Source: a virus
Lineage: Duplodnaviria; Heunggongvirae; Uroviricota; Caudoviricetes
IMG/VR virus record: IMGVR_UViG_2541047879_000004
Location: 1-52,210 of that record
DNA length: 52,210 bases
Reading direction: 5' to 3' (one strand)
This document shows positions 1 through 15,363 of the stretch, in pieces; position 1 is the stretch's first letter; the number at the start of each line of letters is the position of its first letter. The notes beneath the pieces are model-generated. The model did no database searches and had not been told where the DNA came from. It saw only the letters and a list, made by a program, of their open reading frames with translations. Position numbers and translations under genes: made by a program.

Positions 1-1131
1 TCAAATGACCAGTTTTTTCCATTCCTTACCGCGTGCGTCGTTGTAAATATCGGTCATTTTTTGATTCGAATGGCCCAGCAAAATTTTGGTATCAACCCCC
101 TGCTCTCTGAACAATCGCTCTGATAAAGATCTCTGCTCATGGAAAGAGGGTGGGGTGCCATTAGCACGCCAGTTGTAATCCACAGAATCCCGGGCTTTTT
201 TAAATGCAACGGTTAATGTTGCTGGCTTAACCATCCCGCCGCGCTTAGCTGTCCCTTTCGCGTGATGGTGGTGCAATAGCCACGGACTAAGAACGCAATC
301 GCGGCAGGATGACACCACATCATCTAGGGTGAGATTTAATTTATCGCAACGCAGAGCCAGAGGGATGGCAATCCGGGTTCCTGTTTTTTGCTGTTCGACA
401 TGAAGATAACCATCCCGGATATCCGAAAATTGCATTTTGCAAATATCTGAAAGGCGCTGGCCTGTCATCAGTGCCAGCAGCATACCGCGCTGTAAAAAGT
501 AACCATCCTTTTCCGCTGCGTTATAAATCATCATCCACTCATCAAAAGTCAGTCGCTGTCTTGATATCCGCACCTGCGGTTTTTTTGCCGATTCTGCAGG
601 GTTAAAGCCTGGCGGGACATCGCCCGTTTGCTGAGCTTCCCGGAAAACATCGATCAGTACCTTCCTGAAAATTTGTCCCATTCTGTTATGTCCTCTGGCC
701 TTGTACTCTTCCAGTACTGATACCACATCTTTTACGGTTATGGCATCTAACGGTCTGGTGCCAAAACGTTCATCAAATACCCTGAGAGGGGCCGCTTTCT
801 GTTTCAGCGTGTTGAGTTTGATCTCGCCGTTTTCATATCTTTCCTGTTGAATTTTTCTGTAATTATTCAGAAAAATGGTAACGGTTGATGAACCGCCGGT
901 ATCACTAATAATTTTCTCCTGCAGACTGAGCATTTGTTCCATTTGCTGCCGGGCAAGACGGCTGTTCGCTTCTGCTGCAATAGTTTCTGCCAGTTTCTGG
1001 TCAATACTGCCGAGACCGTGATTTTTGCCTGTTATGGGATGCCTGTAACGCCAGTAAACTTTGTTATTTCTTTTGTCAAAATACGGAGATAATCCCGGAA
1101 CATTGGTTTTATATTTTCGCGGGCGCGCCAT
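1..1131 (-). CDS. int: Tyrosine site-specific integrase (lambda Int family)
   Basis: 376-aa ORF; C-terminal HEQRS...LLGHSNQKMTDIY...REWKKL resembles lambda Int catalytic region (HxxR, terminal Tyr); overlapped by xis. Confidence 0.9.
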   Translation of the reverse strand: MARPRKYKTNVPGLSPYFDKRNNKVYWRYRHPITGKNHGLGSIDQKLAETIAAEANSRLARQQMEQMLSLQEKIISDTGGSSTVTIFLNNYRKIQQERYENGEIKLNTLKQKAAPLRVFDERFGTRPLDAITVKDVVSVLEEYKARGHNRMGQIFRKVLIDVFREAQQTGDVPPGFNPAESAKKPQVRISRQRLTFDEWMMIYNAAEKDGYFLQRGMLLALMTGQRLSDICKMQFSDIRDGYLHVEQQKTGTRIAIPLALRCDKLNLTLDDVVSSCRDCVLSPWLLHHHHAKGTAKRGGMVKPATLTVAFKKARDSVDYNWRANGTPPSFHEQRSLSERLFREQGVDTKILLGHSNQKMTDIYNDARGKEWKKLVI

Positions 1132-1421: not shown

Positions 1422-3893
1422 TTAAAAATCAGCCTGATTCGGGATCAGTTTTTGCCAGATAACTGAAACGTATTTTGCCTGGTAACGGGCGTCATCAAGT
1501 GCATTATGGCGCTCACCTTCGAATGGAATAGCCGTTCTGGCATCGAAGTCTATGGCTTTCCCCAGCTCAACGATTGTGCGTACATCGCGATCGTTGTAGT
1601 AACGCCACGGGCAGGGGATCCCCTGCCGTTCGTATGAACGGCGCAAAATCGTGTTGTCGAAGTTGGCTCCATTTCCCCAGACCTGAACAAAAAATTCACC
1701 GGAGTTTTCGTCGATAAATTCCCGCAATTGTAACAGTGCATCATCTAACGGGATTTCATCGGTCATAATGGCAGACTGCGCTTCACGTGATTGCTTCAGC
1801 CACCTTTTAATGACGTCACGATCAATGACTCCGCCAGCAGTTTCCAGATCGATAGTCTTACTAAATTCCGGTCCCATATCTCCGGTTTGCGGATCGAAAA
1901 ATATTGCACCTATTGAGATAATCGGGGCATCAGGATTTTTTCCCATGGTTTCAAGGTCGATCATTAGATGGTCACACGTCCTGCTGGTGGATGTGATAAC
2001 GTGATGACCGTTCATCGTAATTAAGGGATCTGCCGTCTCGCCAGTTTCACTATCGCTGGCGTGATCCTGAGCGCTACCAGCATTCTCCTTGTGTGGATGT
2101 TCAGCGCCTTCCATTTCCTTCGGATCATTTTCCTGAACTTCAACCTGATTCGCTTCATCGAATGTTTCCTGGTATGTTGCGTCACCCATCACCGCGCCAC
2201 AATCAGGGCAGTTGCCGCCACCGCTTTGACCGCAGGCGGTGCAGACTTTTTCCGGTTCCTGTTGCGCTACTGGCTCAGGTTGTTTCGTTTCTGGCTCGTT
2301 TTGTTGCGTATTTGGGCTGTTTTGTTCCGCTTTCTGGTCGTTCTGTTCCGATTCTTGCTGGTTCTGGTTTACAGAATCGCGGGTTTCAATCCCCTTTACC
2401 CATTTCGGATCATTCGGGTCGCTAATCCCTGCAACAAATTCTCCGCGAGAGGCAGCAAGCAACTTATCGGCGTCAGGCTGGCTGATATTGGCTGCCTGCA
2501 TAATTTTGTTTACTTCGTCAGCGGTAACTTTTACCGGCTCTGGTTGTGCGGTCGTGTCAGATGCACCAGTATTTTGTTGTGAACCTGAGTACGTGCCGTT
2601 TTTACGTGCGAAGTATTCCTCTTTTGTGATTTCCGTAGCTCCCAAGGCTAGTGCTTTTTCCAGACCAGAAAGTTTGTTTGCGCGACCGTATTTTTCGCCA
2701 TCCTTGTCGGTGAAGAGGAAGTAGAACGGCCCCTCACGCTCTACAGATGGTTCGACTTCCACTTTGCATTCGGTTTTTTCGTTGCCCGGAATTGCCGTTT
2801 CCACTGCATCAGTTTCTGGTACTGGCGACGAGAGAGTATCAGTTGCGCTCTGATTTCTTCCTTCATCTTCAAACACGCCCTTTGTAGTCAGGTATTCGCA
2901 GATATATTTGTTCAGTGCTACGGGATCTTTGTGAATGTCGATCGGACGCTCACGGACAAGGCCAAAAATAGTTTGGCGGTCGTAGCGAAGGGCATCAGGC
3001 TGTTTGCGCATTGATGCCGAGATACGCTTCCAGTCTTCGCGGTCGTTGTCGATAACTTCATTTTTTGCCCAGCGATGGATGCTGCCGTCAATGTTTCCGG
3101 CATCCACATCACCAGGCCAGAGAGCGCAGGCCAGTTCGTCATCCAGTGTTTTCCATGTCTGCTTGTATTCGCGATGAATGGCAGCAATGACCGGGCTGAT
3201 TTTTCCTGTTGAATTTTCAGTGTACTGTTGATTGGCTCTGGCGCGGGCGAGATCAACAACAGACGTGTATTTTCCGGTTTCCTTGCGTTCACCTTCGCGA
3301 CGTTTTTTCCAGATGCGCATCTCTGCCTGAATTTCGGGCCATTTAGCACCAGGAATACATTTATGCTTAACCCACCCAATGGCGTGCAACTTAAGCTCCG
3401 GATACATGGCGTTAACTTCTGGCATTTTCATCAACGCTTCAACGATATGTCCGTCGAATGTTGCCATGTCTTCCTGCAACAATTCCTGTGCGCTAATAAC
3501 CATATCAACGGTGATGTTTTCACATGTGTCGAACTTAACCATGACAGCGTTCTGTACTTCAGGGGCCAGCTTGTCAAAAGTGACGTTCATCGGATCGGAT
3601 TCAGTCTCAACCGGGACAAAAGAAGCAGACTCCTCATCCCAGCGGTTTTCCTGCATATATTCAGCATCCCATGAATCGAGGGCAGGGCGGGGTATGCCAG
3701 GTTTATCCTCGCAGACAATAAATTTATAAGCGCAGTCCTGAGCAGCCGGATAATGTTCCAGGAATTGCCAGTGAAATTTTGCTCGAGCACGGCGTTCGTC
3801 GCCAGCTTCAATGGCTGTGGCTACAGCCACAGCGCCTTCTTCCCTTGTTGCCAGTTCGTCAGGAATAGCGGCGCAAATAAAGACTTTACTCAT
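1422..3893 (-). CDS. Putative exonuclease with C-terminal DEDDh (DnaQ-like) 3'-5' exonuclease domain; start chosen at MSKVF
   Basis: C-terminal motifs MIDLETMG ... VWGNGANFD ... HNALDDA; central acidic Q/E/P-rich low-complexity linker; lambda exo-position. Confidence 0.6.
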   Translation of the reverse strand: MSKVFICAAIPDELATREEGAVAVATAIEAGDERRARAKFHWQFLEHYPAAQDCAYKFIVCEDKPGIPRPALDSWDAEYMQENRWDEESASFVPVETESDPMNVTFDKLAPEVQNAVMVKFDTCENITVDMVISAQELLQEDMATFDGHIVEALMKMPEVNAMYPELKLHAIGWVKHKCIPGAKWPEIQAEMRIWKKRREGERKETGKYTSVVDLARARANQQYTENSTGKISPVIAAIHREYKQTWKTLDDELACALWPGDVDAGNIDGSIHRWAKNEVIDNDREDWKRISASMRKQPDALRYDRQTIFGLVRERPIDIHKDPVALNKYICEYLTTKGVFEDEGRNQSATDTLSSPVPETDAVETAIPGNEKTECKVEVEPSVEREGPFYFLFTDKDGEKYGRANKLSGLEKALALGATEITKEEYFARKNGTYSGSQQNTGASDTTAQPEPVKVTADEVNKIMQAANISQPDADKLLAASRGEFVAGISDPNDPKWVKGIETRDSVNQNQQESEQNDQKAEQNSPNTQQNEPETKQPEPVAQQEPEKVCTACGQSGGGNCPDCGAVMGDATYQETFDEANQVEVQENDPKEMEGAEHPHKENAGSAQDHASDSETGETADPLITMNGHHVITSTSRTCDHLMIDLETMGKNPDAPIISIGAIFFDPQTGDMGPEFSKTIDLETAGGVIDRDVIKRWLKQSREAQSAIMTDEIPLDDALLQLREFIDENSGEFFVQVWGNGANFDNTILRRSYERQGIPCPWRYYNDRDVRTIVELGKAIDFDARTAIPFEGERHNALDDARYQAKYVSVIWQKLIPNQADF
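2270..2360. repeat. Short imperfect tandem repeats encoding acidic QQ(E/N)PE-type linker inside the exonuclease gene
   Basis: Repeated ttgtt(c/g)cg...tctgg units visible in DNA; protein QQNEPETKQPEPVAQQEPEK. Confidence 0.5.
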
Positions 3894-3985
3894 TTGTTTT
3901 AACCTCATGACAGATTTAAGGATGAACAAATCCCTGCCATTGCTGGCATATAAGAATGAAACCGGATATTTATTACGGAACTGTT

Positions 3986-5756: not shown

Positions 5757-6395
5757 TTAAATATCTTGTTGAATTTTAAAGCATACGCCCAATATGCAAG
5801 ATAGATCATCCAGCATAATTGAAGGGTAGCGAGGATTCGTGGGGACTAAAAGAATATCCGGCCCTTCTATCTCCAGTTTACGAATGACAGGTGTTGTGGT
5901 CCCTTTGGGTAAGGCAAGGACAATATTTCCTGGTTGTACGGTTCGATCGGGATCAACAAAAACTGTTGAACCATTTGGGATGGAAACCCCCCCACCAGAT
6001 GTTGACATACTGTCACTCTCTAGAACAACTGCAAAGGTATTGGCCGGGATTTCTCCGACAAGCTGCACACAAGAGGTTATTGAGGAATTTTTCATATAAT
6101 CACTCCAGCTTGCTGCCTGCTGAAGTGATAGTAGCGGAACCGTTTTTATCGGCGGTAAAGATAGATCAAGCGAATCACCTGTATTTAACTCTCCTCCATT
6201 AAGAAGCCAATTTTCGTTTACTTTCAATATCTTTGCCAGTGAACTTATGTAACGCGAGGACGGCGCTCCTCCACCGTTCATCCATTGACTTACGGAGCCT
6301 TTTGATGCGCCAGTGGCATTGACAAGGTCTTTGCCTTTCAGGTTTAGCGCATGCATACGTTGGGTTATGCGTTCAGATATTGTTTGCTTGCTCAT
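5757..6395 (-). CDS. cI: CI-like phage repressor (HTH N-domain + S24 LexA-like autopeptidase C-domain)
   Basis: N-terminal HTH (GASKGSVSQWMNG), C-terminal S24-like region; divergent from cro. Confidence 0.85.
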   Translation of the reverse strand: MSKQTISERITQRMHALNLKGKDLVNATGASKGSVSQWMNGGGAPSSRYISSLAKILKVNENWLLNGGELNTGDSLDLSLPPIKTVPLLSLQQAASWSDYMKNSSITSCVQLVGEIPANTFAVVLESDSMSTSGGGVSIPNGSTVFVDPDRTVQPGNIVLALPKGTTTPVIRKLEIEGPDILLVPTNPRYPSIMLDDLSCILGVCFKIQQDI

Positions 6396-7138: not shown

Positions 7139-7209
7139 CTGACAATAGCCATATCGAATCGCTTCCGGCAACTCGTGAGTAAAAAGATTCGGTATCAGAA
7201 GAGGTGAGT

Positions 7210-8226
7210 ATGGCTAACGCCTGGCTCAGATTATGGCATGACATGCCAAATGACCCTAAGTGGCGAACAATTGCCAGGGTGTCAGGGCAGCCAATTGCAA
7301 CAGTGATGGCAGTGTATATCCACCTCCTGGTGAGCGCGTCACGAAATGTCACGCGAGGTCACATTGATGTCACGACAGAAGATTTGGCAAGTGCGCTCGA
7401 CGTGACAGAAGAGGTAATTGATTCAATTTTGCAGACGATGCAGGGGCGGGTACTTGATGGTGATTTAATCACTGGATGGGAAAAACGCCAGGTGCTTAAA
7501 GAGGACAACGGCAATATTTCGCAAACCGCAAAATCTCCGGCAGAGCGCAAGAGGGCGCAGCGTGAGAGGGAAAGAAAGCGGGAACAAAATGGCGATTGTC
7601 ACGGCGCGTCACGAAATGTCACGCACATGTCACGACAAGTCACGACAGATAAAGATACAGATACAGAATTAAACCCCACACATAACGCGCGCATGCGCGA
7701 GAGTGCTCCAACCGGTGAGTCGCATGGTGCGCCGTTGCAGACAGCCGAACCTGAATACCTGGACGGCCTGAGCGAACCGATCGGGAAATTTTCGATGACT
7801 ACTGTCTGGCAGCCGTCGTCGGATTTTCGACAACGGGCAGCAGTGTGGGGTATGGCTCTGCCTGAGCCGGAATTTACACCTGCAGAGCTTGCCGCATTCC
7901 GGGATTACTGGATGGCGGAGGGGAAGGTTTTCACGCAGGTTCAGTGGGAGCAGAAATTTGCCCGCCACGTGCAGCACGTCAGGGCACAGGTAAAACCAGT
8001 CAGCAAGGGGGTAAGCCATGCAGCATCAGGTGGCACGGCATCACGGGCAGTTCAGGAAATCCGGGCAGCACGCGAACAGTGGGAACGTGACAACGGATTT
8101 ATCAGCAACGGAAACGGCCTGGAAGCTGTGGGAGCTTATGGGGGAGGTGTATTCGAACCGCTGGACCCAGAAGAACGGGGCCGCACCTTCGAAGCTCTGG
8201 ATTGCCCAGATTGGCGCGATGACTGA
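7210..8226 (+). CDS. Putative replication initiator / replisome organiser (O-like)
   Basis: Position after cro/cII-like genes; gene contains two arrays of GTCACG direct repeats; gaggtga RBS. Confidence 0.55.
   Translation: MANAWLRLWHDMPNDPKWRTIARVSGQPIATVMAVYIHLLVSASRNVTRGHIDVTTEDLASALDVTEEVIDSILQTMQGRVLDGDLITGWEKRQVLKEDNGNISQTAKSPAERKRAQRERERKREQNGDCHGASRNVTHMSRQVTTDKDTDTELNPTHNARMRESAPTGESHGAPLQTAEPEYLDGLSEPIGKFSMTTVWQPSSDFRQRAAVWGMALPEPEFTPAELAAFRDYWMAEGKVFTQVQWEQKFARHVQHVRAQVKPVSKGVSHAASGGTASRAVQEIRAAREQWERDNGFISNGNGLEAVGAYGGGVFEPLDPEERGRTFEALDCPDWRDD
7338..7378. repeat. Iteron array 1: four tandem ~10-bp GTCAC(G/A)-initiated repeats
   Basis: GTCACGAAAT GTCACGCGAG GTCACATTGAT GTCACGACAG. 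Confidence 0.75.
7598..7680. repeat. Iteron array 2: five tandem GTCACG repeats followed by AT-rich tract (candidate origin)
   Basis: GTCACGGCGC GTCACGAAAT GTCACGCACAT GTCACGACAA GTCACGACAG then ATAAAGATACAGATACAGAATTAAA. Confidence 0.75.
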
Positions 8227-8680
8227 ACAGCAAATCCGGCTGGTCTGCCGTCAGTGCATGGACCGCTGCCGGGCGGGTGAAACGTGGCCCCCGGACCTGG
8301 CTGAGTTTGTTGCACTGATTTCGGAGAGTGGGGCAAATCCATTTGGTCTTACGGTGGATGCAGTGATGGAAGAGTACCGGCGCTGGCGCAATGAATCCTG
8401 GCGATACGACGGGAGTGATAAATACCCGTGGCCACAGCCTGTGCTGTACCACATCTGCCTCGAAATGCGTACCAGAGGGATTGAGCGCCAGATGACGCAG
8501 GGTGAGTTAAAACGACTTGCAGAACGGCAACTGACGAAATGGGCAAAGCATGTTGGTAACGGGATGAGTGTTCCGCCAGTGCGACGACAACTGGAAGGGG
8601 CGAAACACCCGCAAGGGCCAACGCCAATTGAACGGCTGAAACAGGAATACGAACGCCGGAAGGCAGCTGGTTTTATTTGA
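8219..8680 (+). CDS. Hypothetical replication-module protein (P-position)
   Basis: 154-aa ORF from MTEQQIRL overlapping upstream stop; no Walker motif seen. Confidence 0.4.
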   Translation: MTEQQIRLVCRQCMDRCRAGETWPPDLAEFVALISESGANPFGLTVDAVMEEYRRWRNESWRYDGSDKYPWPQPVLYHICLEMRTRGIERQMTQGELKRLAERQLTKWAKHVGNGMSVPPVRRQLEGAKHPQGPTPIERLKQEYERRKAAGFI

Positions 8681-9439: not shown

Positions 9440-9454
9440 TCTCCGGAGGTGCTT

Positions 9455-9877
9455 ATGACAAGAGCATTTACACCAGAAGAGCGGGAAAAAATTAAGGGGC
9501 TGATCGTGGAATTCGTACGCCTTAACGGACGAGGCACGATTCGGCAGTTATCGGATGAAATTGGTGTCAGTCATGCGTCTGTCGGTCGTTTATGCATGGA
9601 GCTGGCCGCCAGTGGTGATGTTTACAATTCCGGTTACGGAGTATTCCCGTCTGAACAGGCTCGTAAAGACTGGCAAAATGCCCGCAAAAAATTATCGAGG
9701 GCAAAGCTGAAGAAACCGGTTGTGGTTGATCCGGACCTTATCTGGTCGTTACCTGACGGAGAAATACGTCGCTACGACAGTCGCCTAAACATAATCTGTC
9801 GCGAGTGCCGGAAGAGTGAAGCTATGCAGCGTGTACTGGCTTTCTATCAGGGTAATTTTCAGGAGGCGGTACTGTGA
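9455..9877 (+). CDS. Hypothetical protein
   Basis: ccggagg RBS; 141 aa. Confidence 0.5.
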   Translation: MTRAFTPEEREKIKGLIVEFVRLNGRGTIRQLSDEIGVSHASVGRLCMELAASGDVYNSGYGVFPSEQARKDWQNARKKLSRAKLKKPVVVDPDLIWSLPDGEIRRYDSRLNIICRECRKSEAMQRVLAFYQGNFQEAVL

Positions 9878-9934
9878 GTGAAATTAGCTATCAGGCTTCA
9901 ATTACCGCTGGCATTCGCATCAAAGGAGAGGAGC

Positions 9935-10291
9935 ATGGAAATAAAACCAGAGGATGAGTTAAGCAATATCGTTTTATTTCCGGTAAAAGAGGATGACCCT
10001 CGTAATCAGGTTAATTTTCTTTATGAGCCATCGGAAAGACCATATTGTCATCACGCCTCTGTCCGGGTTGACGAAAAAGAGCGTCAGGTCCGCTGTAAAA
10101 TCTGCGGTGCAGTTGTGGAGCCATTTGACTGGATGCTCTCTGTGGCGAAAAGAGAAACCAGACTGGCAGATGATGTAAGGCTCTTGCGTCAGGAGGAGCG
10201 GGAAAGGCGAAAAAATATAGAAAAGCTAATTCAGATTGAGCGTAACGCGAAAGCGCGGATACGCAGGGCGACAAAATCCAGAACTGAATAA
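9935..10291 (+). CDS. Hypothetical Cys/His zinc-ribbon-like protein with basic coiled C-terminus
   Basis: aaaggagag RBS; CHH...CKICG motif. Confidence 0.5.
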   Translation: MEIKPEDELSNIVLFPVKEDDPRNQVNFLYEPSERPYCHHASVRVDEKERQVRCKICGAVVEPFDWMLSVAKRETRLADDVRLLRQEERERRKNIEKLIQIERNAKARIRRATKSRTE

Positions 10292-10384
10292 TTAAATTTA
10301 GCTCTGTTAAAAATTTAATCCTTAACCGGAGGGATTTCTGCACCTTCAGAACATCAGGAGGCCGCCCGAAAGGGCGGTAGTTAA

Positions 10385-10567
10385 ATGCGAAAGTTTAAAA
10401 TAATTATTGAAACGGGAATAGCCGGTGGAGATTTCGAGGATGAATTCGAAGTGGATGATGATGCGACGCCTGATGAAATACATGACGAAGCAAAAGATAT
10501 TTTCTTTAACTACTGCAATTACTCATATCACGAAATAAAAGACGAAGAGGAAGAACAAAATGGCTGA
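10385..10567 (+). CDS. Small acidic hypothetical protein
   Basis: 60-aa ORF, translationally coupled to next gene. Confidence 0.4.
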   Translation: MRKFKIIIETGIAGGDFEDEFEVDDDATPDEIHDEAKDIFFNYCNYSYHEIKDEEEEQNG

Positions 10568-10736
10568 TTCTGGTTCAACTAAATATAACGCCAGTTTTGA
10601 AGAATGGCATGAACTGTTAATGGATTATGCAGAGTTACGCGGTGGAAGTGCCGCTGATGCTGAAGCATGGCGTGATGATTATGAAGCAGGGAAAACACCG
10701 GTCGAAGCATATTGTGATGAGTGGGGCGATGAATGA
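10560..10736 (+). CDS. Small acidic hypothetical protein (58 aa)
   Basis: ATG overlaps upstream stop; stop overlaps next start (ATGA). Confidence 0.35.
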   Translation: MADSGSTKYNASFEEWHELLMDYAELRGGSAADAEAWRDDYEAGKTPVEAYCDEWGDE

Positions 10737-11092
10737 GCGAGATTAATTATCAGGAAGGGCATGAAAAGGCAGGGCAGGCAAAACCAGTGGCATGGCGATA
10801 TCGCTACGTGAAAAAAGGCGTTACAGACTTTCAGGGGAAGCAGTGGGTTGGTGACTGGAAATATGTACCGACAAAAGAGGATTGCAACGACAGACCGAAC
10901 TATGAAATTCAGGCGTTATTCACTGCCCCGCCTGTGCCACTGACACCAGAAGGATTGATTAAAGCAGTGCGTTTCTATGAACAGGTAAAGCGTGAGAATC
11001 CGCCAGTCGAAACCGGAGCATGGAAAGACGCTGTTGACTGGGTGCTCAAAGAGGCTTGCCAGTCTGTAAACATTGGCATCAAAGGAGAGTGA
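10733..11092 (+). CDS. Hypothetical nin-region-like protein (MSEINYQ...IGIKGE)
   Basis: 119-aa ORF; C-terminus encodes the conserved AAAGGAGAG junction. Confidence 0.5.
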   Translation: MSEINYQEGHEKAGQAKPVAWRYRYVKKGVTDFQGKQWVGDWKYVPTKEDCNDRPNYEIQALFTAPPVPLTPEGLIKAVRFYEQVKRENPPVETGAWKDAVDWVLKEACQSVNIGIKGE

Positions 11093-11094
11093 GA

Positions 11095-11586
11095 ATGCAA
11101 ATTTCACCGGTTACTCTTCGTGTTGCGAAGGCGTTTATATCCAGACATCACCGACACAATAAACCCCCGGTGGGGCATAAATTCAGCATTGGTCTGAGAA
11201 ATGATGCCGGAGAATTGATAGGTGTGGCGACAGCCGGTCGACCTGTTGCACGACATTTGGATGATGGATTAACGCTTGAAGTAAATCGCACATGTACCAC
11301 AGGAGAACGCAACGCTAACAGCGCGCTTTATGGTGCTGTCTGGCGGGCAGCAAAAGCTATGGGTTATCAACGTTGTATTACGTACACCCGGGCAGATGAA
11401 TCAGGAGCATCTCTTCGCGCAGCTGGTTTTGTTCGTGTGAAAGAGCTTCCTCCAAGAAAAAGCTGGGCGGAATCAAGCGTCGCACTGCGGAGTAAACGCG
11501 ATCCAGTCGGAAACGGTGGTGTTCCTCGTGTGCTCTGGGAAATCAGGATAATGAGTACCACTGGTATTCGCATCAAAGGAGAGTGA
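11095..11586 (+). CDS. Hypothetical protein (163 aa)
   Basis: Starts 6 nt after conserved junction motif; ends ...TTGIRIKGE. Confidence 0.5.
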   Translation: MQISPVTLRVAKAFISRHHRHNKPPVGHKFSIGLRNDAGELIGVATAGRPVARHLDDGLTLEVNRTCTTGERNANSALYGAVWRAAKAMGYQRCITYTRADESGASLRAAGFVRVKELPPRKSWAESSVALRSKRDPVGNGGVPRVLWEIRIMSTTGIRIKGE

Positions 11587-11587
11587 T

Positions 11588-11851
11588 ATGGCAACTTTGA
11601 CAAAAAAAGAACGGGCATGGTTGAACGAATTACAGGACGTTCTTGATCGCTGCCCATCACCGAAAAAAATTGGTTTTTACACCATTGGCGATAAAAGCAT
11701 TTACCTGTATGACCTACGCCGCATGGATGAAATCATGGAGGCTCTTGATAATCGTTCGTCGATGGATTGGTGTGTTGCTGTTCATGATATGAATGCAGGG
11801 TTTGATGAAAAGATTTTGTTCCCCTCATCAGTTGAAAGCACTGCGGGTTAA
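11588..11851 (+). CDS. Hypothetical protein (87 aa)
   Basis: Starts right after junction motif. Confidence 0.5.
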   Translation: MATLTKKERAWLNELQDVLDRCPSPKKIGFYTIGDKSIYLYDLRRMDEIMEALDNRSSMDWCVAVHDMNAGFDEKILFPSSVESTAG

Positions 11852-11861
11852 GGAGTAACAC

Positions 11862-12029
11862 ATGACCACTATTACCAAAGAACGTATTGAATTGTTCATT
11901 AAAAACCCGCTTGAAAACGGGCTTACCCGTGGTGAACAAATGGAACTGGCACGGATTGCGCTGGCATCGCTGGAAGCAGAGCCGGTTGTGTTCTGGTTTG
12001 AAAAATATCAAGAAGGGGCTACGGCATGA
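11862..12029 (+). CDS. Small hypothetical protein (55 aa), N-terminal paralog of the next gene
   Basis: aaggag [15 protein letters not shown]... and ALASLEAEP parallel [12 protein letters not shown]... and ALVSLAAEP of next ORF. Confidence 0.4.
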
Positions 12030-12370
12030 CGACTTTTACCAGAGAGCAGTTAATAGCTCACGCAGAGGAGACTATTGAAGCACAGAGACTGTGCATACCG
12101 GGTACAATCGACCATGACATCATCCGCACATATAAGATGGATATTGCTGTTCTGGAAATCGCACTGGTATCGCTGGCAGCAGAGCCAGCCGGTAAATTGC
12201 ATGAATACAAACCAGTGGGATATCAGCGTCTGGTCGATGAGTTAACCATGCTGGTAAAGCAGTTAACCTGGCAACTGAGGAAAGCGAAGCCAGACTGCAA
12301 ATTACCGGATAAGGCGATGAGTTATCTGGAGCGGAACGGACTGATAAGCGTGGAGGATATTTTACGATGA
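12026..12370 (+). CDS. Hypothetical protein (114 aa)
   Basis: ORF overlapping upstream stop (ATGA). Confidence 0.5.
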
Positions 12371-12661
12371 CCTGGCCTGAAGCATTAACAACGGTAGGAA
12401 TTGCGATGGCGGTGACGCTGATGGTGTATTCGATTTGCCGCTGGGGATAAAAACGGTTTGCGGGAAAAGGAGAGTTAAGTAGAATTGCTGCGGGTGCTTG
12501 AGGCTATCTGTCTCAGGCATGAACACCAAAAGGCAGATAGAGAAAAGCCCCAGTTAACATTACGCGTCCGGCAAGACGCTTAACATTAATCTGAGGCCAT
12601 ATCTATGCTCTACACACGTAGGTTAGCCTCTTACGTGCCGAAAGGCAAGGAGAAGCAGGCT

Positions 12662-12817
12662 ATGAAGCAGCAAAAGGCGATGCTAATCGCCCTGATCGTC
12701 ATCTGTTTAACCGTCATTGTGACGGCACTGGTAACGAGGAAAGACCTCTGCGAGGTACGAATCCGAACCGGCCAGACGGAGGTCGCTGTCTTCACAGCTT
12801 ACGAACCTGAGGAGTAA
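12662..12817 (+). CDS. hok: Hok/Gef-family type I toxin (51 aa membrane peptide)
   Basis: MKQQKAMLIALIVICLTVIVTALVTRKDLCEVRIRTGQTEVAVFTAYEPEE: single TM helix plus conserved LCE(V/I)R motif; in-frame upstream extension (12605) is mok-like. Confidence 0.85.
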   Translation: MKQQKAMLIALIVICLTVIVTALVTRKDLCEVRIRTGQTEVAVFTAYEPEE

Positions 12818-13258: not shown

Positions 13259-14305
13259 GTGCGGGTATTACTTCGACCTGTTCTGGTACCGGAACTCGGG
13301 CTGGTGATCGTTAAGCCGGGCCGTGAATCCATGCCGGTATTCCACAATACCCGGGTACTGGTGGAGCCGGAACCGAAAAGCATGCGTAATCTGCCGTCCG
13401 GGGTCGTTCCTGCCGTTCGCCAGCCGCTGGCGGAGGATAAATCATTACTGCCATTTTTCAGCGACGAACGAGTGATTCGTGCTGCTGGTGGCGCTGGCGC
13501 ATTGTCTGACTGGTTACTGCGCCATGTTAAATCCTGCCAGTGGCCACACGGCGATTATCACCACAGTGAAACCGTCATTCACCGTTATGGTACCGGCGCA
13601 ATGGTGTTGTGCTGGCACTGCGACAACCAGCTGCGCGACCAGACCTCCGAATCACTCGGGCAACTTGCTCACCAAAACCTGTCTGCATGGATGATTGACG
13701 TCATACGCCATGCAATGAATGGCTCGCAGGAACGGGAATTATCGCTGGCTGAATTATCCTGGTGGGCGGTCCGCAATCAGGTGGCGGACGCGCTACCGGA
13801 AGCGGTATTACGTCGTTCGCTGGGGTTGCGTGCGGAAAAAATCCGCTCAATGTACCGTGAAAGCGACATCGTACCGGGAGAGCAGACCGCCACCAGCATA
13901 CTGAAGCAGCGCACAAAAAATCTTGCGCCGCTGCCTCACGCCCACCAGCAAAACCCGCCACAGGAAAAGACGGTGGTCAGCATTGCTGTTGATCCGGAGT
14001 CTCCGGAATCTTTAATGAAGCGACCTAAACGTCGCCGTTGGGTAAATGAGAAATATACGCGCTGGGTAAAGACACAGCCGTGTGCGTGTTGTGGTAAGCC
14101 AGCCGACGATCCCCATCACCTGATTGGTCATGGTCAGGGCGGAATAGGGACAAAAGCCCACGATATTTTCACGCTACCGTTGTGTCGGGAGCATCACAAC
14201 GAACTTCATGCTGATCCGCTGGCATTTGAAGAAAAGCATGGTTCCCAGATTGATTTAATTTTTCGTTTTCTTGATCGCGCCTTTGCAACCGGCGTGCTCG
14301 GGTAA
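13259..14305 (+). CDS. DUF968-family protein with C-terminal Cys/His (HNH-like) motif
   Basis: GTG start with ggagg RBS; C-terminal CACCGK...DPHHLIGHG...CREHHNELH. Confidence 0.55.
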   Translation: MRVLLRPVLVPELGLVIVKPGRESMPVFHNTRVLVEPEPKSMRNLPSGVVPAVRQPLAEDKSLLPFFSDERVIRAAGGAGALSDWLLRHVKSCQWPHGDYHHSETVIHRYGTGAMVLCWHCDNQLRDQTSESLGQLAHQNLSAWMIDVIRHAMNGSQERELSLAELSWWAVRNQVADALPEAVLRRSLGLRAEKIRSMYRESDIVPGEQTATSILKQRTKNLAPLPHAHQQNPPQEKTVVSIAVDPESPESLMKRPKRRRWVNEKYTRWVKTQPCACCGKPADDPHHLIGHGQGGIGTKAHDIFTLPLCREHHNELHADPLAFEEKHGSQIDLIFRFLDRAFATGVLG

Positions 14306-14317
14306 AAGAGGTTACTG

Positions 14318-14677
14318 ATGCGTATAGAGTTTGTTTTGCCTTACCCGCCGACGGTGAACACCTACTGGCGTCGTCGTGGCAGCACATATTTTGTATCAAA
14401 AGCCGGTGAGCGTTATCGCCGGGATGTGGCACTTATTGTCCGCCAGCAGCGGCTGAAATTAAACCTGTCCGGAAGGCTGGCAATAAAAATTACTGCAGAG
14501 CCACCGGATAAGCGCCGTCGTGACCTGGACAATATTCTGAAAGCACCACTGGATGCACTGACACATGCGGGGTTGCTTATCGACGACGAGCAGTTTGATG
14601 AAATCAATATTGTGCGCGGACTGCCTGTTCCTGGTGGTCGGTTGGGGATAAAAATCACAGAGCTGGAGTGCGCATGA
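14318..14677 (+). CDS. rusA: Holliday junction resolvase RusA
   Basis: 119 aa; PDKRRRDLDNILKAPLDALTHAGLLIDDEQ matches RusA catalytic Asp cluster. Confidence 0.85.
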   Translation: MRIEFVLPYPPTVNTYWRRRGSTYFVSKAGERYRRDVALIVRQQRLKLNLSGRLAIKITAEPPDKRRRDLDNILKAPLDALTHAGLLIDDEQFDEINIVRGLPVPGGRLGIKITELECA

Positions 14678-15363
14678 ATAACCAGTATTTACAGTTTGTT
14701 CGTGAGCAGCTCATTATCGCCACCGCCGATTTGAGTGGGGCAACAAAAGGTCAGCTTGAAGCCTGGCAGGAGAATGCCATGTTTGATACAGGGCGTTACA
14801 GACGTAAAAAAATCCGGTACCGCGATAAGGTCACTGGAAAAATGGTAACGCTGGATAATCCACCGATCCCGGGAAAGCAATCGCTGGCGAAAGGTTCATC
14901 AATTGCCCTAGTCAGTCCGGTTGAGTTTTCGACATCATCATGGCGACGCGCCGTTCTGTCTCTTGAAGAGCATCAGAAGGCGTGGGTACTGTGGGTATAC
15001 AGTGAAAATCCGAGTTGGGATTATCAGGTGGTCATTGCGAAATGGGCGTGGGATAAGTTTCAGGTGCATTTTGGTACCAGAAAAATTACAGGGAAAACGC
15101 TTGAGCGTCTGAAGAAATTAATCTGGCTGGCGGCGCAGGATGTCAGGGGGAGGATTACTGGGTGTGACGTCTACCAGCGACAGGAACTTGCCAGACTGTG
15201 TGGAGTTAAGTCAGACAACTGGAGCCACAATTATGCGCACTACTGGCGTGATATGTGCGACATTTTTAAGAACCTCGACAACGAATCTTTGATTTATACC
15301 ATGAAAACAAGATCGCAACAAAAAGCGACCTTTTCGCGGCGGGTTATTGCAAAAGTCAATTAA
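14674..15363 (+). CDS. Late-gene antitermination protein Q-like
   Basis: Position immediately before late/lysis region and after rusA; ~230 aa; start overlaps rusA stop. Confidence 0.6.
   Translation: MNNQYLQFVREQLIIATADLSGATKGQLEAWQENAMFDTGRYRRKKIRYRDKVTGKMVTLDNPPIPGKQSLAKGSSIALVSPVEFSTSSWRRAVLSLEEHQKAWVLWVYSENPSWDYQVVIAKWAWDKFQVHFGTRKITGKTLERLKKLIWLAAQDVRGRITGCDVYQRQELARLCGVKSDNWSHNYAHYWRDMCDIFKNLDNESLIYTMKTRSQQKATFSRRVIAKVN

Follow-up and report, generated by a model that had tools for sequence, protein, structure and literature searches.

Why does the same short sequence stand at three gene junctions within one small block of phage genes, and what keeps it there? The question is raised by a lambdoid prophage in IMG/VR record IMGVR_UViG_2541047879_000004, of which positions 1 to 52,210 were analyzed (hereafter the window, 52,210 nucleotides (nt) in length). 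The block concerned, 9449-12370, lies between the replication genes and the antiterminator gene Q and consists of tightly packed or overlapping small genes on the plus strand (Table 1). With a probability of roughly 70%, the recurring sequence is considered here to be a short conserved boundary, or linker, where small accessory genes are reshuffled through homologous recombination and which is kept for the translation of the gene downstream, a mechanism that we infer from comparative patterns between related sequences. The anatomy of this boundary comprises a portable core that is invariant at the DNA level, partners that combine freely on its two sides, a second boundary at the 5' end, a collapsed allele in which both boundaries are kept, and an embedded Shine-Dalgarno (SD) sequence.

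The first-pass annotation of this DNA had placed the motif at 9910-9930 (GGCATTCGCATCAAAGGAGAG), 11075-11089 (GGCATCAAAGGAGAG), and 11563-11583 (GGTATTCGCATCAAAGGAGAG), and all three positions were confirmed in the sequence. Two copies of the underlying 17-mer, TTCGCATCAAAGGAGAG, are exact (9914-9930 and 11567-11583), and a third, at 11073-11089, has one mismatch (TTGGCATC…). A C-terminal GIRIKGE had been attributed to all copies; it is encoded by copies 1 and 3, whereas copy 2 encodes NIGIKGE, the exact-motif form of this gene end being present in locus L061. Copies 1 and 3 have 28 nt in common, TACC(G/A)CTGG(C/T)ATTCGCATCAAAGGAGAG. The stop and the next start are arranged as TGA-GA-ATG in copy 2 and as TGA-T-ATG in copy 3, and the stop of copy 1 is lost, with GAGC in place of the TGAT of the other copies. 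Likewise, the N-terminal signature RTGAGYGARATTRRYTATCAGG occurs exactly twice in the window (0.00 expected), at 9874 and 10733, the same two frames for which a common MSEINYQ start had been proposed. Purine-rich strings resembling SD sequences are common upstream of genes, so that their recurrence by chance has to be considered. Such a coincidence is practically negligible here, as three occurrences of the 17-mer with up to three mismatches were observed in the window of 52 kilobases (kb) against 0.18 expected, with only 1 of 100 shuffled sequences reaching three, the identity between copies 1 and 3 extends to 28 nt, and at least 120 further exact copies stand at gene ends in viral contigs.

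By sequence identity, lambda itself has the motif as the 3' end of its ea22 gene (…AGIRIKGE, stop), because a 300-nt stretch carrying it in one viral contig is 100% identical to lambda J02459 29700-29999, this region is annotated as ea22 in phage DE3, and the lambda-identical open reading frame (ORF) encodes 182 amino acids (aa), with HRYYGVGG at residues 152-159 and the end …SDAGIRIKGE. The HRYYGVGG sequence has been described for lambda Ea22 (PMC10834534). The motif thus corresponds to the 7-9 terminal codons (…A-G-I-R-I-K-G-E, stop) of genes in the lambda ea22/P22 ead family (Ead/Ea22; PF13935, IPR025153) and is identical to the lambda terminus …SDAGIRIKGE-TGA. Among the matches listed, nearly all viral-contig ORFs ending at the motif start with V/M-S-E/K-I-N/D-Y-Q-A-L-R-E, and genes of loci L123, L204, and L002 (two genes in the last) match Pfam Ead_Ea22 (PF13935) with 46.7-137.3 bits against a cutoff of 27. 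In the window, the Ea22 N-terminal signature M/V-S-E/K-I-N/D-Y-Q is present at 9874 and 10733, and the C-terminal K/R-G-E tripeptide occurs as KGE at all three copies. However, unlike members of the family, the carriers in the window (a 27-codon remnant, a 119-codon chimera, and a gene of the XF1762 family) have no Ead_Ea22 domain; the 119-aa ORF at 10733-11092 had no Pfam match and so lies below the gathering score of PF13935. These carriers would therefore be better described as remnants or chimeras of the Ead/Ea22-like family than as members of it. The position also differs, as lambda ea22 is located between exo and xis, whereas the array of the window follows the replication genes, in a nin-region position of the rightward operon. 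Previous studies have indicated that all Ea22 proteins end in K/RGE, with unknown significance (Dydecka et al. 2020, PMC7093339), and that ea22 genes are mosaic, sharing the N-terminus and coiled coil and carrying unrelated C-terminal domains (Donaldson and co-workers, PMC10834534). In the literature searched, no paper containing "IRIKGE" and nothing specific on mosaic ends of Ea22-like genes was found.

The partners of the motif were compared across related phages by an exact 17-mer scan of IMG/VR, which returned at least 120 loci; 125 sites, including the three of the window, were oriented, and 150 nt on each side were clustered. Among the matches listed, these sites comprised 16 unrelated upstream and 19 downstream flank classes in 49 combinations; the downstream class D1 stood behind six upstream classes, the downstream gene D3 behind at least five different upstream genes, and the upstream class U3 before seven downstream classes. 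Among the representatives of these classes, conservation climbed from background to near 100% solely within GCTGGCATTCGCATCAAAGGAGAGTGAKATG, an invariant core of about 25-33 nt that reaches from the final codons of one gene through its stop to the start codon of the next. Where sites shared the same downstream gene (median identity 96.7%) behind unrelated upstream DNA, the left limit of identity fell 1-14 nt before the 17-mer, most often at 8 nt; where they shared the same upstream gene (median 96-97%) before different downstream DNA, the right limit fell 0-16 nt behind it. The core stays with either neighbor when the other one is exchanged, and is therefore not simply baggage of one partner. 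In GenBank phage records, BLAST blocks started or ended at 9906-9907 (many records), 10754, 11087, and 11566-11596, the endpoint at 10754 being the end of the 5' signature of the 10733 gene. Unrelated flanks, a position at gene boundaries, and partners reassorted on both sides, the features expected of a linker, were thus all found, and the proposal that the motif is conserved at gene boundaries in related phages held, with many different partners on each side.

Conserved ends around variable cargo could also be the mark of a dedicated site-specific or homing target, such as an integron attC-like or homing-endonuclease site, and an HNH endonuclease gene is indeed found in the same array of phage ArgO145. 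Nevertheless, this explanation is highly improbable. No inverted repeat or palindrome was found overlapping any of the three copies, no recombinase or endonuclease was consistently adjacent to the motif among the matches listed, where its neighbors were highly variable, and the sole integrase of the window lies 8.7 kb away. Beside copy 1, a perfect 11-nt inverted repeat was observed at 9937-9947/9971-9981 (GGAAATAAAAC/GTTTTATTTCC), beginning with the last base of the 9935 start codon, and the upstream mini-ORF terminates in its loop. The predicted 91-nt fold just behind this start was no more stable than shuffled sequence (z = -0.12), and a role of the repeat in translational coupling is speculative.

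Is the core conserved as DNA or for the peptide that it encodes? A set of 87 Ea22-like genes was ascertained via the N-terminal and coiled-coil region, so that their 3' ends are unbiased, and the exact 21-mer GGCATTCGCATCAAAGGAGAG was present in 41 of the 87. Its single-base variants comprised six non-synonymous types (GIGIKGE, DIRIKGE, GIRIKGD, GIRIKGK, GFRIKGE, and GIRLKGE) against two synonymous types, a roughly neutral ratio. This suggests that the core is conserved at the DNA level and not at the peptide level, with no signature of a selected peptide. The core was also found on genes outside the Ea22 family, of which the XF1762-family (Mom-like) gene of the window is an example. Its homologues in Edwardsiella, Klebsiella, Enterobacter, and Pantoea are 150-154 aa long and stop at …LWEIRRxx without a tail, whereas E. 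coli versions have MSTTGIRIKGE added, and the gene has the tail in some lineages only; in the window this appended tail of 11 codons occupies 11551-11583. Some Klebsiella, Salmonella, and Enterobacter versions (P0007, P0021, P0031, P0034) end in the related tails AAGIKVEVK, AAGIQVIEGEDGE, and TTAGIKLQIEGE, which points to other prophage pools having their own, genus-specific alleles of this junction. It is plausible that the MSTT of the E. coli tail is a second collapsed N-terminus (compare the starts MSTITKER… and MTTITKER…), a resemblance not distinguishable from chance. A function of the peptide itself, with G-I-R-I-K-G-E acting as a C-terminal tag (a degron or an interaction or localization signal), would be in line with the wide distribution of the peptide and with the K/RGE ending common to all Ea22 proteins (PMC7093339). 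However, selection on the protein predicts the opposite of the observed excess of non-synonymous types and near absence of synonymous diversity, and the tail stands on unrelated folds (XF1762, the 119-aa protein, and at least 13 C-terminal modules), most XF1762 homologues lack it, and in copy 1 it is read through into eight further codons. A peptide-level function is consequently regarded as improbable.

The part of the core with a recognizable role is AAAGGAGAGTGAT, which consists of the codons for lysine, glycine, and glutamate together with the stop and 1-2 bases behind it, and which is the complement of the 16S ribosomal RNA tail (perfect complement UAAGGAGGUGAU) except for one bulged base. 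The first-pass annotation had taken the motif to combine a gene end with the ribosome-binding site of the next gene, and AAGGAG does precede the ATG codons at 9935, 11095, and 11588 by 6-7 nt. The anti-SD duplexes predicted at these starts have energies of -10.9, -13.7, and -14.4 kcal/mol, respectively, the last two being the strongest among the ten starts of the block (range -6.0 to -14.4). Considering this complementarity, the spacing, and the duplex energies, the K-G-E codons and stop are the predicted SD sequence of the next gene. The junctions also have the layout of translational coupling, with 16S complementarity inside the range of 5-9 nt expected before a start and a stop that adjoins or overlaps this start. 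A translational role of this kind would explain why the arrangement is tolerated and retained.

Such a role could in principle suffice. The main rival explanation is that the core is only a translation-initiation element, an optimal ribosome-binding and coupling site carried along by downstream genes, and that the mosaicism arises from illegitimate recombination, independent of homology, followed by selection for intact genes (the Hendrix model). In its favor, AAAGGAGAGTGAT complements the anti-SD over an extended length, starts fed by the junctions have the two strongest predicted pairings of the block, other gene ends in the loci keep just …KGE, a stop, and ATG behind codons that are unrelated (MLHGKGE, LRSNKGE, HLRTKGE), K/RGE alone is common to all Ea22 proteins (Dydecka et al., PMC7093339), and many lambdoid joints are thought to be due to illegitimate recombination (PMC2327257). 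However, the SD does not involve the 12 nt GGCATTCGCATC or the GCT in front of them, although these bases recur, always in frame, on C-terminal modules of at least 13 unrelated kinds, and a change of either partner leaves the core with the other. Moreover, random joints would give scattered and often out-of-frame left boundaries, in contrast to the observed mode of 8 nt. On this balance, an SD-only constraint is rather unlikely, and a boundary that is both exchanged and translated is preferred.

The collapsed allele is the short frame that opens at 9874 with a GTG overlapping the stop of the preceding DUF977 gene (GTGA). The first-pass annotation had read it as VSEISYQASITAGIRIKGE, the leftover ends of a deleted paralogue. 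The codons are as read, but no stop follows GE, and eight more codons lead to a TGA at 9955-9957; because the stop is missing at copy 1, the frame has 27 codons and a 23-nt overlap with the 9935 gene. The origin proposed for it is borne out, as its halves match both ends of a full-length Ead_Ea22 gene and syntenic relatives have complete genes of 153-335 codons in its place. The comparator is a gene of 230 codons (693 nt) at 8010-8702 of L123, the one full-length gene returned when viral contigs were searched with the 5' variant. The 5' signature at 9872-9896 agrees with L123 8008-8032 in 23 of 25 nt, and 9904-9930 is identical to the 3' end of the same gene in 27 of 27 nt, so that about 8 N-terminal and about 11 C-terminal codons are kept. 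In relatives, the slot before the 118-codon gene holds full-length ea22-like genes (L001, L002, L006, and L204), with 161 codons in vB_EcoS-689R5, about 150 in L006 and E. coli E-1246, and 335 in ArgO145, the last with the identical read-through end …AGIRIKGEEHGNKTRG.

The scar allele was detected in 979 of 5,426 complete E. coli genomes (~18%) with a scar-specific 67-nt query covered to at least 80%; this figure replaces an earlier one of 961 genomes, in which joined BLAST pieces were possible. Among species-representative genomes it was present in E. coli and Shigella flexneri only. The collapsed allele is thus old and common and not an event in this window. Its variants among the matches listed (S/N, E/K, T/A/I, and SE to SG) indicate no obvious peptide constraint. 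Nucleotide diversity was 0.040 in the scar and 0.037 in the downstream gene against 0.34 in the DNA upstream of the scar, which indicates that the scar travels with the downstream gene and that its own 5' boundary is a mosaic joint. A further ~550 E. coli genomes matched the scar query from 9906-9908 onward only, and the rows sampled from these had an ead/Ea22-like or RseB-domain gene annotated upstream. For example, E. coli E-1246 agrees with the window in 93 of 93 nt starting at 9908, and the following 2.2 kb are 98.9% identical, with DUF977, DUF4406, and a 153-aa Ea22-like gene upstream of 9908.

Other arrangements were observed around the scar. A longer gene in L054 ending …HYQASITAGIRIKGE had been considered as a deletion between two TATCAGG repeats; it is actually a two-ORF insertion sequence in the scar, and the microhomology idea was therefore dropped. 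This insertion sequence, presumably of the IS3 family and IS911-like, occupies L054 4759-5963 (orfA MKKRNFSAEFKRE…, orfB of 279 aa), between the DUF977 stop and TATCAGGCTTCAATT. In L084 (site 6171, minus strand) and in E. coli hit H45, another collapsed gene lies directly upstream of the scar, and scars therefore occur in chains. The frame in question has the N-terminus of the 55-codon gene type, then FSGGGT, encoded by the final 18 nt of the DUF977 gene read in a different frame, and then VSEISYQ….

A second boundary was recognized at the 5' end of ea22-family genes, where about 55 nt are conserved (CGCAAAGGAGGCAACCAGTGAGCGAGATTAACTATCAGGCACTGCGTGAGGCGGCAGA), comprising the end of the preceding gene, an SD sequence, GTG, and about 13 codons. 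Since this 5' end is conserved as well as the 3' core, ea22-family genes are enclosed by a conserved patch at either end, and the sequence in between is variable. This mosaic structure is seen in the 119-codon gene of the window, whose protein agrees with the 260-residue Ea22-like protein of L061 in its first 7 and last 48 residues only. The 5' boundary CTTCGCAAAGGAGGCAACCAGTGAGC (upstream gene end …LRKGGNQ) was also observed to resemble the 3' junction ATTCGCATCAAAGGAGAGTGATATGAGC, and IRKGSSQ and LRKGVIQ ends are present in tandem Ea22 arrays; both boundaries may have diverged from a single putative element. An extended and more tentative interpretation is that these genes form a two-ended cassette system, with a 5' boundary of about 55 nt and a 3' boundary of about 30 nt kept uniform by frequent exchange within the prophage pool of E. 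coli and Shigella, in which the freely exchanged cargo would be C-terminal domains or whole foreign genes (XF1762/Mom-like, HNH) and the 57-nt "empty cassette" a maintained landing pad and no inert remnant. This is possible, though it goes well beyond the linker itself and is considered less likely than not to apply in full.

As a linker, the core and the 5' boundary would provide short-homology patches for homologous recombination, by which host RecA or phage annealing proteins of the Red/RecT/Erf type, the candidate enzymes (compare PMC2327257), could exchange, insert, and delete small genes in register. Every new neighbor would stay coupled to a strong ribosome-binding site, and repeated exchange together with the translational role could hold the core uniform. 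The collapsed gene would have arisen by deletion between the two ends of an ea22-family gene; the scar may have been kept as the remaining link between the DUF977 gene and the 118-codon gene, and as a landing pad it could allow a cassette to be regained. Red and RecET systems recombine short or diverged homologies, and short conserved boundary sequences are an accepted candidate mechanism of lambdoid mosaicism (PMC3029335, PMC2327257).

Several points weigh against the linker. The evidence is all comparative, and a core of 25-33 nt is close to the shortest length at which homologous recombination is efficient. No Red/RecT/Erf-type recombinase was recognized among the window ORFs scanned, which yielded an integrase and an 835-aa protein only. 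The sites were ascertained by the exact 17-mer, so that the invariance of the 17-mer is by construction, the flanks and the 87-gene sample being unbiased, and many loci are related prophages, so that the counts are of sequences and not of independent events. Similarly, the contrast of synonymous and non-synonymous changes comprises eight variant types, small numbers from non-independent sequences. Regarding the scar, 7 nt are unexplained, and a full-length gene with its exact 3' variant (…TCAATTRCCGCTGGCATTCGCATC, without a scar before it) gave zero matches in viral contigs, so that no exact parent gene was found.

The junction can be compared with several known systems. The linker or boundary-sequence hypothesis of lambdoid mosaicism goes back to Susskind and Botstein (1978) and Clark et al. 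(2001), as cited in PMC3029335 and PMC2327257. Like those boundary sequences, the junction is short, conserved among unrelated neighbors, and a proposed focus of homologous recombination. In the work on phage HK620 (Clark et al. 2001, J Mol Biol 311:657), seven sequences reportedly bounded large functional modules. Unlike such module-bounding linkers, the junction of the window bounds single small accessory genes and recurs several times in one operon, and one half of it is coding sequence, the other half ribosome-binding site. In translationally coupled junctions of the UGAUG type, too, the final codons of the first gene contain the SD sequence, and its stop overlaps the next start or lies 1-2 nt from it; however, ordinary coupling junctions with an SD sequence inside the upstream coding sequence are specific to a gene pair, whereas this one is portable and identical across dozens of gene pairs. 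Integron cassettes (attC) also carry variable single-gene cargo between recurring ends, and an "empty" allele exists, but the junction has no attC-like imperfect palindrome and no dedicated integrase, its ends are coding sequence, and exchange would use general homologous recombination. The junction is thus best seen as one more phage mosaic boundary of a known kind, a clear case with unusually many occurrences, and not as a new mechanism.

Table 1. Coordinates of the junction copies, their carrier genes, and other features of the window.
Feature	Position	Strand	Remarks
5' end signature	9872-9896	+	start and first 7-8 codons, SEI(S/N/D)YQA
27-codon mini-ORF	9874-9957	+	VSEISYQASITAGIRIKGEEHGNKTRG; ea22-family gene collapsed to its two ends
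7 nt between the two ends	9897-9903	+	TTCAATT; matches neither end
Junction copy 1	9904-9937	+	ACCGCTGGCATTCGCATCAAAGGAGAG + GAGC + ATG of next gene
Junction copy 2	11073-11097	+	TTGGCATCAAAGGAGAG TGA GA ATG
Junction copy 3	11558-11590	+	CCACTGGTATTCGCATCAAAGGAGAG TGA T ATG
DUF977/Ren-like (LygF) gene	9449-9877	+	Pfam PF06163, E = 6e-28; phrog_142; annotated DUF977 in E. coli relatives
118-codon gene	9935-10291	+	downstream class D1; phrog_1621; weak zinc-ribbon match
119-codon mosaic gene	10733-11092	+	ea22 5' signature 10733-10754, unique middle, C-terminal module ending NIGIKGE; phrog_660
XF1762-family (Mom-like) gene	11095-11586	+	NCBIfam NF045478 over residues 3-136 only; phrog_1384
87-codon gene	11588-11851	+	downstream class D3; phrog_1714
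Integrase	1-1131	-	only integrase in the window; at prophage end
835-aa early-left ORF	1422-3929	-	sole Pfam match: C-terminal Rv2179c-like 3'-5' exoribonuclease domain, E = 3.5e-63
S24-type repressor	5757-6395	-	
DnaT-like and P-like replication genes	7204-8680		
DUF968, RusA, antiterminator Q	13259-15363		lysis and virion genes beyond

Promoter and terminator scans of the block at 9449-12370 returned nothing above background. Its only sizeable intergenic gap, 10292-10384, contains a GC-rich hairpin (GGCCGCCC GAAA GGGCGGT) directly before the start of the DUF7167 gene, with no T-run behind it. The part at 10733-12370 resembles an array of shuffled ea22-superfamily modules (matches to phrog_660, phrog_60, and phrog_3323), in which neighboring genes have a segment in common as direct repeats (11941-11983 and 12153-12186), also present in the "Ea22" gene of L001. 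Another portable gene-end junction was observed at 11985-12030, where the 55-codon gene at 11862-12029 overlaps the gene at 12026 by ATGA; the HNH endonuclease gene of phage ArgO145 has the identical last 15 residues and the same downstream gene (L002 3790-3838). An Rfam scan gave no RNA family at the junctions, the sole match being sok at 12492-12667 (117 bits), within a hok/sok type I toxin-antitoxin locus at 12492-12817. The Hok-like ORF (…MKQQKAMLIALIVICLTVIVTALVTRKDLCEVRIRTGQTEVAVFTAYEPEE) ends at 12817, and the equivalent gene is annotated as hokD in E. coli relatives.

In the literature examined, K/RGE has not been read at the DNA level as an embedded SD sequence and boundary, and this is the modestly new point of the present analysis. 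The published puzzle of the K/RGE ending of Ea22 proteins would have a simple explanation, the tripeptide being the predicted SD sequence of the next gene and part of a boundary conserved as DNA. The junction also flags annotation artefacts, since XF1762 tails such as MSTTGIRIKGE and 27-codon "hypothetical proteins" are junction remnants. For the debate on linkers versus illegitimate recombination in lambdoid mosaicism, the junction offers a countable case, with boundaries sharp within ~10 nt and dozens of combinations. Finally, if the two-ended cassette system were true, the block would be a natural recombineering site that diversifies accessory, possibly anti-defence, genes of these phages.

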